From NCBI GenBank assembly GCA_037447435.1, contig JBBIGR010000015.1:1-64000 (forward strand): a stretch of DNA of 64,000 nt, written 5' to 3'. Under the pieces are notes generated by a model, which did no database searches, was not told the DNA's origin, and was given only the letters and a program-made list of their open reading frames with translations. Source of the stretch: Fibrobacteria bacterium (GTDB lineage: Bacteria; Fibrobacterota; Chitinivibrionia; Chitinivibrionales; FEN-1185). The position numbers were made by a program, and so were the translations under genes. Within the stretch, counting starts at the first letter, position 1. The number at the start of each line of letters is the position of its first letter. This document shows positions 50,904 to 54,265 of the stretch, in pieces.

Positions 50904-53087
50904 TTACCTGTTTTGGAAATGGCTGGCAAGATCGGTAAGCTGACGTTTGGATGGGGAAATTTTCGGCCCTTGGTGGCCGAGCCCTTTCATTGAAAGGGAA
51001 ATCCTTCTTTTTTTCGCATCGACCTTGAGAATCCTGACATTGACAACATCGCCGACGGAAACCACCTGCTCCGCGGACTCGACATAGGTATCCGCCAATT
51101 GCGAAATATGGATCAATCCGTCGCACACCGCATTGATATTGACAAATACGCCAAACGGAGTGATATTGGTAACCCTGCCGGTTACCACGGCATTTTCCTC
51201 GAGTTCAATGAGTTTTAGTTTTTTCTTGGGCTTGAAAAATCCGGTTGTTCCGCCGAATCGCTGCCCGGCGGCCAATTGCCCAATCAGTTTTTTCTCAAGA
51301 AACAGTTTCCGAATGACATCGGACTCGGGAAACGACCGCACCGCCTCCGGATCCAAAACCAAAGAATCCTGCGCTATTTGAAGACCGTCGCAAATACTTT
51401 TGAGCCACGGAAAATGGTCTGGATGAACCATAGTCCGGTCCAGCGCATTTTCGGCTGTAGGAATCATGAAATATCCGGCCAAACTTTTATACGCGCCGTC
51501 GGAAATTCCGTTAACTTTTGAAAGATCCTCTTTTTGGGAAAGACCGTTCTTGGCACAATGCGCAATAATTTCCTTTTTCAAATCAGCGGAAATAAACGGC
51601 TCCATATTTACCGAGTTCAGCGAATCGGCACAATCTGCCGAAGAAATGCCGCTCGCAAGATGCTTATCGCAAATAATTCGATCGACAAGCTGTGAAACTT
51701 TTTCCTTCGAAATACAATGCTGCAAGGGGTGAAAGGAAAAATATTCCACGCCGATTTTCGAAATAAGATGCGCCGGTTGAATATGGGATATTGCGGCACC
51801 AAAAACATTTTGCATCGGCTCTTCCAGATCGGAATATTCCTTTTTCATCCATTCGGACGATGCAATTTCCGGAAAATCGACAGGCTTATCGACAAATGTT
51901 ATTTGAGACGTATTTTGAATCGAATCAAGAGTTTTCTTGACAATGGCTTCTGCCGCATTTGCATCTTCATTGTTCACGATAAGAATTGCCGACGGTTTAT
52001 AACGCATGACGAACTGTTTCAAACGTTCGCTCGCCACCGGTTTATCGAGCACGATCTTCTTTTCGGAAGCTGCACCGCTGAGACGGCCGCGATCGGTGCA
52101 AACGACCAACGCAAATTGTTTTTTATCTATGATGCCGCATGAACAATAGGATTTTTCCTCTGCCTCAACGGACATTTGCTTCCCAAAGGCCTGCATGACG
52201 GGACGAAGCATGGCCTCCTCGGCCTCGTTGCGCAGTCGGATTTTCACATCGCGTTCGGCAATGGGTTGCAATAAGCGCAACCAAGCATCGTCTATTGCTT
52301 CGGCAATGAGCTGAAAAGCGGAAGAATCCGGATTAACGACAAAATGATGTTTGAGAAGTTCGGTGATGCGAAACAATTGTACCGAAAGTTTTAATCGGAT
52401 TTCTTTTTTATCTTCCGCGGCAAGAAGCGTAAGCAATTCTTCCTGCGATAATTCGCGTATGACAATAAGCTTGCCGACATATTTCGAAAATTCACCCGAT
52501 TTGTTTTTGGGGGTCACTTCGAAAAAACCGTCGTCGTACATGAATTCGCGCACCATGGTACGCGCGGTTTCATCATAGGCAAACCGTTCGGCGATAATAT
52601 CTTTAACGCCGGCAATGACGTCGTCGGCGCTTTTAAGCGAGGGATCGGTGCAATATGCGGCGGCGCATTCTTCCAAGGGGGGCAGATTTTCTTCTTGTGC
52701 AAGGATTTTGTCGGCAAAAACACCCAAACCTTTTTTCAACGCCAGCTGCCCTTTACTTCTCGGATTTACGCGTTCGGGCAAAAGCATATCGTCGAGTTCG
52801 AATTCATTGGTCAGATGCGTGATGCGGGCTTCGAGCTCAGGGGTAAACTTTTCGCTTTTCTTTAGCGCGTTAATGAGTCGTTTTTTCTTTGAAGCAAGGT
52901 TGGAGGCAATGAACAGAAAATCGTAAATGCGCCATACGCCCCAAACGTCAAGTTCAGAACATATAATAGTATTATAGTCTGCACAATAATTCGGCATCAA
53001 CCCCTTTTCGAAGCAATCGCACAATTCACGCGCGCATGCTTCGGAAACGGAAAACGTATCGGCGATGTATTTGGAAAATTCTTTCAT
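50904..53087 (-). CDS. divergent Tex-like protein with C-terminal S1 domain
   Basis: Tex N-terminal pattern (ELDD..LP, A..KGL, GVKDIIAE), LDRTMVHPD, GRVTNITPFGVFV..DGLIHISQL..RISLSMK. Confidence 0.85.
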   Translation of the reverse strand: MKEFSKYIADTFSVSEACARELCDCFEKGLMPNYCADYNTIICSELDVWGVWRIYDFLFIASNLASKKKRLINALKKSEKFTPELEARITHLTNEFELDDMLLPERVNPRSKGQLALKKGLGVFADKILAQEENLPPLEECAAAYCTDPSLKSADDVIAGVKDIIAERFAYDETARTMVREFMYDDGFFEVTPKNKSGEFSKYVGKLIVIRELSQEELLTLLAAEDKKEIRLKLSVQLFRITELLKHHFVVNPDSSAFQLIAEAIDDAWLRLLQPIAERDVKIRLRNEAEEAMLRPVMQAFGKQMSVEAEEKSYCSCGIIDKKQFALVVCTDRGRLSGAASEKKIVLDKPVASERLKQFVMRYKPSAILIVNNEDANAAEAIVKKTLDSIQNTSQITFVDKPVDFPEIASSEWMKKEYSDLEEPMQNVFGAAISHIQPAHLISKIGVEYFSFHPLQHCISKEKVSQLVDRIICDKHLASGISSADCADSLNSVNMEPFISADLKKEIIAHCAKNGLSQKEDLSKVNGISDGAYKSLAGYFMIPTAENALDRTMVHPDHFPWLKSICDGLQIAQDSLVLDPEAVRSFPESDVIRKLFLEKKLIGQLAAGQRFGGTTGFFKPKKKLKLIELEENAVVTGRVTNITPFGVFVNINAVCDGLIHISQLADTYVESAEQVVSVGDVVNVRILKVDAKKRRISLSMKGLGHQGPKISPSKRQLTDLASHFQNR

Positions 53088-53225
53088 GACCCTTACAGTG
53101 CGGGGTACTAGACCCGGCAGCCAACGCCTTGCGCAAAGGCAATTTTATTACACAGGATGTTTATAGTGGTCTGTGTCACGCGGAATTAAAACTACACAAT
53201 GCCATCGATCTGCGCAATAATAAAC

Positions 53226-53257
53226 AAAAAGCGGACAGAAATTAACCTGTCCGCTTT
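53226..53257 (-). terminator. intrinsic terminator of the small basic peptide gene
   Basis: AAAGCGGACAG-N8-CTGTCCGCTTT with T-run on the minus strand. Confidence 0.85.
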
Positions 53258-53288
53258 GCCGACATACGAGACCGAAAAAAAAAGAAAT

Positions 53289-53369
53289 TTATTTTTTCTT
53301 TTTCTTTGCGACTTTTTTCACTGCTTTTTTTGCAACCGCTTTCTTAGCAACTTTTTTCTTGGCTGGCAC
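53289..53369 (-). CDS. 26-aa Lys/Ala/Val-rich peptide MPAKKKVAKKAVAKKAVKKVAKKKKK (histone H1-like)
   Basis: GTG start 7 nt after AAAGGAGG; TAA at 53289; flanked by promoter and terminator; below ORF-track size cutoff. Confidence 0.82.
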   Translation of the reverse strand: MPAKKKVAKKAVAKKAVKKVAKKKKK

Positions 53370-53516
53370 GTCAGCACCTCCTTTAAAATGATGGAATGTT
53401 AAACTTCAGCTGCTACGTTCGCAGCTGTCTATGATAAACATTTTGATTCGATTTGCGTTTTAGCTTTTGATTTACTTTTGAGATTATCGCCGATTCACAA
53501 TCATTATCTACATATA

Positions 53517-53545
53517 ATAATAACCTCAAAAAGAATCAATGTCAA
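53517..53545 (-). promoter_or_regulatory. near-consensus sigma70 promoter
   Basis: TTGACA (53545-53540)-17 nt-TATTAT (53522-53517). Confidence 0.78.
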
Positions 53546-53587: not shown

Positions 53588-54265
53588 TTACGCGAAATTA
53601 ACTTTTGTGTTACGTTTTTTCATGACTTCGTTTATCACGTCTATTGCTTCCTGAGGATCGTCGGTAGTATTGATGATATCGAAGTCTTCTTTCGAAATAT
53701 ATCGTTCACCGTACATACTGTCGTGCAGCCACGTATCGAGACCTTTCCAATATTCCTTACCCATCATGACAAGGGGCAAATACGTGCTTTTTTGCGTTTG
53801 TATAAGGGTAAGGGCTTCGAACAATTCGTCCATTGTTCCGAACCCGCCGGGCAACACGATCACCGCGGAAGTGTATTTGAGGAACATTACCTTTCTACAA
53901 AAGAAATGCTTAAAACTCAACAGCAATTTTATATATTTGTTCGGCGCTTGCTCAAACGGCAATTGAATATTCAGCCCGACCGACATGCCGTTGGCTTCTT
54001 GTGCGCCGCGGTTCGCAGCCTCCATGATGCCGCCGCCGCCGCCGGTAATTACGCCGTACCCGTTTTCGACGGCACGCTTGGCGACTTCGCGCGCCATTTT
54101 GTAATACTTGTCGTTTTCAGGTGTGCGGGCAGAACCGAAAATCGTAACGCAAGGCCCGATTTTCGAAAGCGTTTCAAAGCCATCAACGAATTCCGCCATG
54201 ATCCTGAAGATCCTCCAGGTATCATCATGTGTCAACTCTCCGTTTTTTCCGTTCGTACCGTTCAT
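53588..54265 (-). CDS. LOG family (TIGR00730) Rossmann-fold protein
   Basis: IFGSAR, TGGGGGIMEAAN, LPFEQ, RKVMF, PGGFGTMDE. Confidence 0.93.
   Translation of the reverse strand: MNGTNGKNGELTHDDTWRIFRIMAEFVDGFETLSKIGPCVTIFGSARTPENDKYYKMAREVAKRAVENGYGVITGGGGGIMEAANRGAQEANGMSVGLNIQLPFEQAPNKYIKLLLSFKHFFCRKVMFLKYTSAVIVLPGGFGTMDELFEALTLIQTQKSTYLPLVMMGKEYWKGLDTWLHDSMYGERYISKEDFDIINTTDDPQEAIDVINEVMKKRNTKVNFA

Follow-up and report, generated by a model that had tools for sequence, protein, structure and literature searches.

Does a 26-codon, lysine-rich reading frame standing alone between two larger genes represent a genuine gene, and if so, what would its product do? The question arises from a 64,000-nucleotide stretch of DNA from a Fibrobacteria bacterium, analysed as a whole and called the window. 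On its minus strand, a promoter, a leader, a ribosome-binding site (RBS), a GTG-start open reading frame (ORF) and a terminator together make up one unit, flanked by a LOG-family gene and a Tex-like gene. A first-pass annotation had described this unit as an unannotated gene for a histone-H1-like peptide; the promoter, leader, RBS and ORF that it named were all recovered in place, and both neighbours were confirmed by Pfam. The features of the locus are as follows.

53588..54265, minus strand: upstream LOG-family (lysine-decarboxylase-like) gene, PF03641, the synteny anchor
53517..53545, minus strand: sigma-70-type promoter, TTGACA-17-TATTAT, 11/12 consensus match, TTGACA starting at 53545
53370..53510, minus strand: 5' leader of about 141 nt, its start inferred from the -10 box
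53407..53427, minus strand: 7-bp CAGCTGC/GCAGCTG hairpin in the leader
53377..53384, minus strand: Shine-Dalgarno sequence AAAGGAGG, 7 nt ahead of GTG
53289..53369, minus strand: 26-codon ORF, GTG start at 53369, TAA end at 53289, MPAKKKVAKKAVAKKAVKKVAKKKKK
53275..53307, minus strand: predicted hairpin, stop codon in the loop, stem formed by Lys codons and the U-rich 3' UTR
53257..53267, minus strand: 3' UTR arm, predicted to pair in the full-length RNA with 53376-53366 (RBS spacer and start codon)
53228..53257, minus strand: intrinsic terminator, 12 pairs by the scanner's count, with U tract
53189..53217, minus strand: promoter-like site of the Tex-like gene, TTGCGC-17-TAGTTT, outside the peptide unit and given for context
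50904..53087, minus strand: downstream divergent Tex-like S1-domain gene, PF22706 and PF00575

The encoded peptide is composed of Lys, Ala, Val and Pro; 14 of its 26 residues are Lys, none is acidic, and its mass is 2.86 kDa. The promoter is flanked by an AT-rich tract on its 5' side and an AT-rich discriminator on its 3' side. Sites combining TTGACA with a -10 box matching at 5/6 positions or better are scarce, numbering only 78 in the genome (10.09 Mb, both strands). The terminator is present as described earlier, except that the scanner counts 12 pairs instead of 11 bp.

The LOG anchor was matched in 74 of the 81 genomes of the order, and the DNA 3' of it was examined in 73 (own genome included), one LOG gene that ran off its contig end being left out. 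A Lys/Ala-rich (K/A-rich) ORF follows LOG at 50 of these 73 loci, that is, in 49 of 72 relatives, which are kin rather than independent cases, in a series spanning families whose LOG is about 60-75% identical to that of the window; the recurrence takes the shared architecture beyond chance. The carriers fall in five of the eight families examined. GGAGG lies 6-8 nt 5' of the start at all 50 peptide loci, RBS spacing having helped to choose the starts, and the start is GTG in 46 and ATG in four. TTGACA within a promoter matching at 10/12 positions or better was found at 37 of the 50 loci; the leader measures 116-163 nt in 34 of these 37 and varies in sequence. A terminator of -12 kcal/mol or below follows 41 of the 45 complete loci. 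At this single locus the orthologs range from 18 to 213 aa (22 aa in genome G003), with 11 of the 45 complete ORFs at 30 aa or fewer, and the length changes are in-frame gains and losses of xxAKK-type repeats. Their composition (K 42.5%, A 25.8%, V 12%, T 5%, P 5%, R 2%) fits the description of the Hc2 pentamer in the available part of PMC2848022.

Substitutions within the ORF are distributed as expected for a translated frame. The third codon position accounts for 5/6 variable columns in a five-genome group, and three other close pairs differ by synonymous to non-synonymous codon counts of 2:0, 8:2 and 15:8. Only the promoter, the RBS-start block, the Lys/Ala codons and the terminator U tract are invariant in the five-way alignment. 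The CAGCTGC leader hairpin noticed in the first pass does exist in the window, but neither it nor the leader body is conserved in the four closest relatives aligned. Frame and RBS are kept in related genomes together with the LOG-peptide-Tex synteny, so the earlier proposal of a conserved H1-like Lys/Ala-repeat gene withstands the comparison on which it might have fallen, and two longer orthologs pass the HC2 profile cut-off. The window ORF is almost certainly a protein-coding gene, judging from its pattern of conservation. An antisense 67-aa ORF (53199-53402, plus strand) was rejected, as its frame is open by construction and it carries an RBS at none of the 45 loci. In the window (53384-53361) and at L002, L010, L012 and L013, the spacer behind the RBS folds together with the first codons into a small local hairpin that has GTG in the loop; it was not seen by eye in other families.

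Among the 23 loci without a peptide ORF, ten have LOG beside Tex with the intact ORF absent, one of them carrying a frameshifted or degenerate ORF; eight come from one family with a different gene order, two others also differ in order, and three are cut by contig ends. At one contig-cut locus the 3' end of the gene, the terminator and Tex open another contig. At L062 (end of G002:C6), a stretch that we take to be insertion-sequence-like directly follows the LOG stop, and the 3' end of a peptide gene opens L004 (start of G002:C7), a possible disruption. At L098 (G048) the RBS and GTG are intact and the K/A ORF changes frame midway, representing either a decaying copy or a sequencing error.

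Moreover, with the pattern used, no start-anchored AKK-repeat ORF was found in any of the five near-complete genomes (94-98%) without the peptide at the locus, one of which belongs to the genus of the window genome. Because the intact ORF is missing at 10 of 49 LOG-Tex loci and from all five checked genomes, the peptide cannot be an essential chromatin protein; on this distribution it is accessory. Its dose also appears to be adjusted. All 37 loci with the strong promoter start with GTG and the four ATG forms lack it, and in the own genome GTG starts just 15 of the 115 long ORFs with the same RBS. We infer that the strong promoter and the weaker GTG start tune the dose together. Since the two are paired in 37/37 loci, the protein level implied by the earlier term 'highly expressed' is uncertain. 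The discriminator is AT-rich at all 37 loci, with 0-2 G/C in 6 nt; rRNA-type promoters, following E. coli logic, have a discriminator unlike this one.

The 26-mer has no match in Pfam, NCBIfam, PHROG or PDB, and Rfam gave nothing near gathering score across the region. On PF07382 HC2 (cut-off 40), the ortholog of 87 aa scores 46.1 bits and that of 213 aa scores 62.7, so that two of the seven longer syntenic orthologs tested pass and two more match below threshold, scores that in low-complexity sequence may reflect composition only. None of 12 repeat proteins tested reached an NCBIfam cut-off, and a PDB search with the 87-aa ortholog returned only weak matches (E ~0.12) to sigma-factor K/A stretches. 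In the Atlas, a 75-aa ortholog is modelled at low confidence (pTM 0.20) and sits amid clusters of 72-85-aa 'hypothetical proteins'; HC2 is found in 21% of the members of one look-alike cluster. Additionally, the own genome contains two paralogs with ATG starts, one of 43 aa at G000:C33:54179-54048 (minus strand, locus L241; promoter 10/12, terminator after it) and one of 28 aa at G000:C49:7558-7644 (plus strand, locus L242; promoter 12/12). Both are unannotated and stand alone, with a common short leader motif. The peptide, the two paralogs and nine look-alikes were not found in a collection of 15 billion proteins that does hold the flanking LOG and Tex; the look-up may fail on a GTG first residue, but the two ATG paralogs are absent too.

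Such repeats are widespread in the phylum, as 208 of its 296 genomes encode at least one protein with a triple AKK repeat. K/A-rich stretches are also found in these genomes as tails on SWIB, HTH and presumably HU-like proteins. For instance, a tandem-HTH protein (PF13384, PF13518; L009:1054-1572, also L003, L006 and L019) carries a long K/A/V C-terminal tail and is possibly an H1-tailed DNA-binding protein. A stand-alone SWIB protein (L244:325-618 in G000:C8, also L056) has a short K/A-rich N-terminal extension that opens like the micro-peptide.

The closest known counterparts are chlamydial Hc2 (hctB; PF07382, NF038052) and the BpH1 of Bordetella and Burkholderia (NF038053), which, like the window peptide, are stand-alone repeats of two basic residues with Ala, Val, Thr or Pro and vary in length by in-frame repeat gain and loss (excerpts of PMC2848022). 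In the window peptide the repeats are evenly spaced and free of acidic residues, as in that class. However, lengths are 165-237 aa for Hc2 and 149-231 aa for the Burkholderia forms (same excerpts), against 26 aa here; Hc2 has a non-repeat C-terminal domain whereas the window peptide is all repeat, and the latter gives no hit to any Hc2/BpH1 profile (PF07382, NCBIfam). By analogy, it may work as a minimal variant of this class without being a member by profile or length. The K/A/P-repeat tails of AlgP and PhaF of Pseudomonas, of mycobacterial HupB and of eukaryotic linker H1 have the same composition and predicted disorder, and binding of such tails to DNA, RNA or polyphosphate is documented (PMC9239181, PMC12818456) and is reported for HupB. 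In AlgP, PhaF, H1 and HupB, though, the tail is attached to a folded or oligomerising domain, whereas the window peptide is a tail alone.

The best reading of these comparisons is that the window peptide is among the shortest members of a family of proteins that consist of a histone-H1-type tail and nothing else. If transcribed and translated, it would be disordered in solution, and net charge rather than a fold or pocket would do the work. Action by distributed charge on a polyanion is suggested because the peptide carries 14 positive side chains but not one negative, lacks a fold or second domain, and belongs to a series in which a ten-fold change in length is tolerated while acidic residues in the short forms are not. 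The peptide would neutralise the charge of DNA and so aid compaction. Reasoning from known proteins of similar make-up, we moderately favour binding to DNA (and RNA) without sequence specificity that helps to compact the nucleoid. Hc1 and Hc2 condense DNA and Hc2 binds RNA; loss of BpH1 in Bordetella has little phenotype and is not lethal (PMC2848022, in part); KPAA peptides bind DNA in vitro (PMC9239181, in part). The ligand could nevertheless be another one, because like repeats bind specific mRNAs in PhaF (PMC12818456, in part) and bind and organise polyphosphate granules in AlgP (PMC9239181, in part).

Comparable ORFs also occur far outside the order. A pattern scan of GTDB for an RBS followed by M-x-x-K-K ... 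K/R-K/R-K-stop found at least 120 loci. Among the matches listed, 100 of 122 (at 99 loci) are K/A ORFs of 17-29 aa, whose unconstrained middle is 93% K/A/V/P/T and of which 63 have a terminator behind them. By the labels of the database records, these short ORFs belong to at least about 16 bacterial groups; those among the matches listed include Planctomycetota, Bdellovibrionota, Acidobacteriota, Verrucomicrobiota, Chloroflexota and Nitrospirota, as well as Alpha- and Gammaproteobacteria, Patescibacteria and Leptospira interrogans. A few archaeal bins are also among the matches listed, at least one with a doubtful label. One bin labelled as an archaeon (L166) and a Dormiibacterota contig (L135) have an identical 24-aa peptide behind a hydrolase gene of one and the same family, so either label may be wrong. 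The look-alikes may share ancestry with the window gene or have arisen separately, the sequence being too simple to tell. Of 130 candidate neighbouring frames 75 were scanned, and the 37 that received Pfam names have no common function and include no ribosomal, nucleoid or polyphosphate gene. Functionally unrelated neighbours are as expected of a diffusible, self-contained product. In the literature searched, from which subscription papers and preprint supplements were outside the scope, no description of 17-30-aa K/A microprotein genes was found. The main text of a Leptospira sORF preprint (10.64898/2025.12.08.692996) has no mention of histone, AKK, lysine or nucleoid; its supplements could list the Leptospira peptide.

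Among the alternatives to nucleoid binding, a role mainly in RNA binding, whether as an RNA chaperone, as a modulator of translation or as a peptide loosely attached to the ribosome surface, comparable to the KPAA repeats of PhaF or to Hc2, ranks second and is rather unlikely. The C-terminal KPAA repeats of PhaF bind mRNA leaders and activate translation, PhaF co-sediments with 30S (PMC12818456, in part), and Hc2 prefers RNA (excerpts of PMC2848022). At 39 of 50 loci the peptide gene also has the Tex-like S1 gene beside it, an adjacency that the first-pass annotation had noted; yet Tex stays beside LOG at the 10 loci without an intact peptide ORF and has a promoter-like site of its own, and the Tex-peptide link is, on the gene order, incidental. 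The ribosome-associated option raised earlier loses ground as well, since a fixed ribosomal site is unlikely for a product of 18-213 aa with 2% Arg that is lost in close relatives. Small basic ribosomal proteins of the bS22/COX24 type (PF08213) resemble the peptide in being 20-35 aa long, very basic and often unannotated, but they are fixed in length and sequence and contain Arg, and the window peptide shows no such fixity, no clade-wide presence and no profile match. Other small basic ribosomal proteins are bTHX and eL41. The genome has a separate bS22/COX24-like ORF, which also counts against the ribosomal reading, and none of the 37 Pfam-named neighbours elsewhere (75 of 130 frames scanned) is ribosomal. 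That ORF, of 33 aa, basic, unannotated and with an RBS (G000:C21:33031-32930, minus strand; L243:231-332), scores 22.4 bits on PF08213 (COX24_C; cut-off 23) and probably encodes a small ribosomal protein. A featureless polycation would bind any polyanion, and the KPAA domain of AlgP is needed for the spacing of polyphosphate granules (PMC9239181, in part). A general buffer on polyphosphate or storage granules, or a bridge from nucleoid to granule, is improbable all the same, given that AlgP and PhaF carry an N-terminal domain beside the tail that the window peptide lacks, and that no polyphosphate gene is among the named neighbours of the look-alikes.

Three further readings place the function in the transcript or in toxicity. 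That the RNA is the product and the Lys-rich frame a by-product of A-rich sequence is very improbable: the unit RNA does fold more stably than shuffles (z -4.4) and its stop-codon hairpin recurs, but conservation extends to the frame, its start, the RBS spacing and the third-position variation and not to the leader or the folds, and the region has no Rfam family at gathering score. The stop-codon hairpin has 9 Watson-Crick pairs in the window; at least 6 are found in 29 of 99 short GTDB ORFs among the matches listed, compared with 2.5% of shuffled sequences and, in the own genome, 4 of 88 genes that end in Lys-Lys; within the order it is rare (2/45 loci). Loci from several unrelated groups with the hairpin and a C/U-rich 3' UTR include L124, L129, L154, L165, L169, L181, L185 and L199, among others. 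Hairpins at the 5' terminus and before the RBS are not general either, with z < -1.65 at 10/37 and 12/37 loci, respectively. A lysine-sensing attenuator controlling the Tex-like gene is scarcely credible and was rejected. A Lys-rich short ORF, a terminator about 30 nt on and a same-strand gene downstream would suit it, but there is no competing antiterminator (with the terminator's 3' arm blocked, the 5' arm still pairs with nothing upstream) and no downstream gene in need of the leader promoter, a site like that of Tex being present also at loci without the peptide. Orthologs of up to 213 aa speak against a leader peptide too, and in other groups, among the matches listed, 9 of the 16 downstream neighbours with a Pfam name are convergent, as is the neighbour of the C33 paralog. 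Type I toxin systems are modelled as silenced by mRNA fold-back, and in the own genome the predicted fold has the 3' UTR covering the RBS spacer and start codon, at a pairing probability near 1 (z -4.7 relative to UTR shuffles). That the unit encodes a toxic or antimicrobial cationic peptide silenced in this way is nonetheless highly doubtful, for the pairing is not conserved (z < -2 at 2/40 loci, median z 0.15), the antisense strand offers no ORF with an RBS at any of 45 loci, and the peptide, with Lys at 14 of 26 positions, has no hydrophobic run or membrane helix and no export signal. As a separate observation, the genome holds two Tex-like paralogs that are 23% identical (window 50904-53087 and G000:C19:48017-50125), the window copy being a divergent form conserved beside LOG across the order.

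With nucleoid binding as the preferred reading, the locus is of interest in several respects. Gene callers miss such ORFs and trypsin would destroy their products in proteomics, and thus the nucleoid inventories of many phyla may lack a nucleic-acid binder that is possibly abundant. Orthologs of 18-213 aa at the LOG-Tex locus constitute a natural length series in which promoter, RBS and terminator are conserved, which makes the role of bare H1-type tails, and the influence of their length, directly testable. Chemically, though, the peptide is like H1-like repeats already described, and its function is a proposal. What is new, at the level of sequence, is the single-locus series joining micro-forms to HC2-scoring proteins, together with the cross-phylum sample and the ultra-Lys-rich look-alikes in phage contigs. 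More speculatively, H1-tail-only microproteins of about 20 residues, encoded by stand-alone genes with strong promoters that annotation overlooks, could form a large and abundant chromatin class across many bacterial phyla, some archaea and phages. Hc2/BpH1-like proteins, and perhaps even the H1 tail, could then have grown out of such minimal seeds as repeats were added, and only length and dose would be adjustable; we regard this only as a tentative conjecture. In the viral contigs (L259-L329), 43 of 71 matches are basic ORFs of 17-25 aa, many of them 70-83% Lys/Arg with little Ala. Their neighbours include members of terminase, portal, head-tail adaptor, exonuclease and GroES families, and these Lys/Arg-rich ORFs possibly encode DNA-neutralising peptides.
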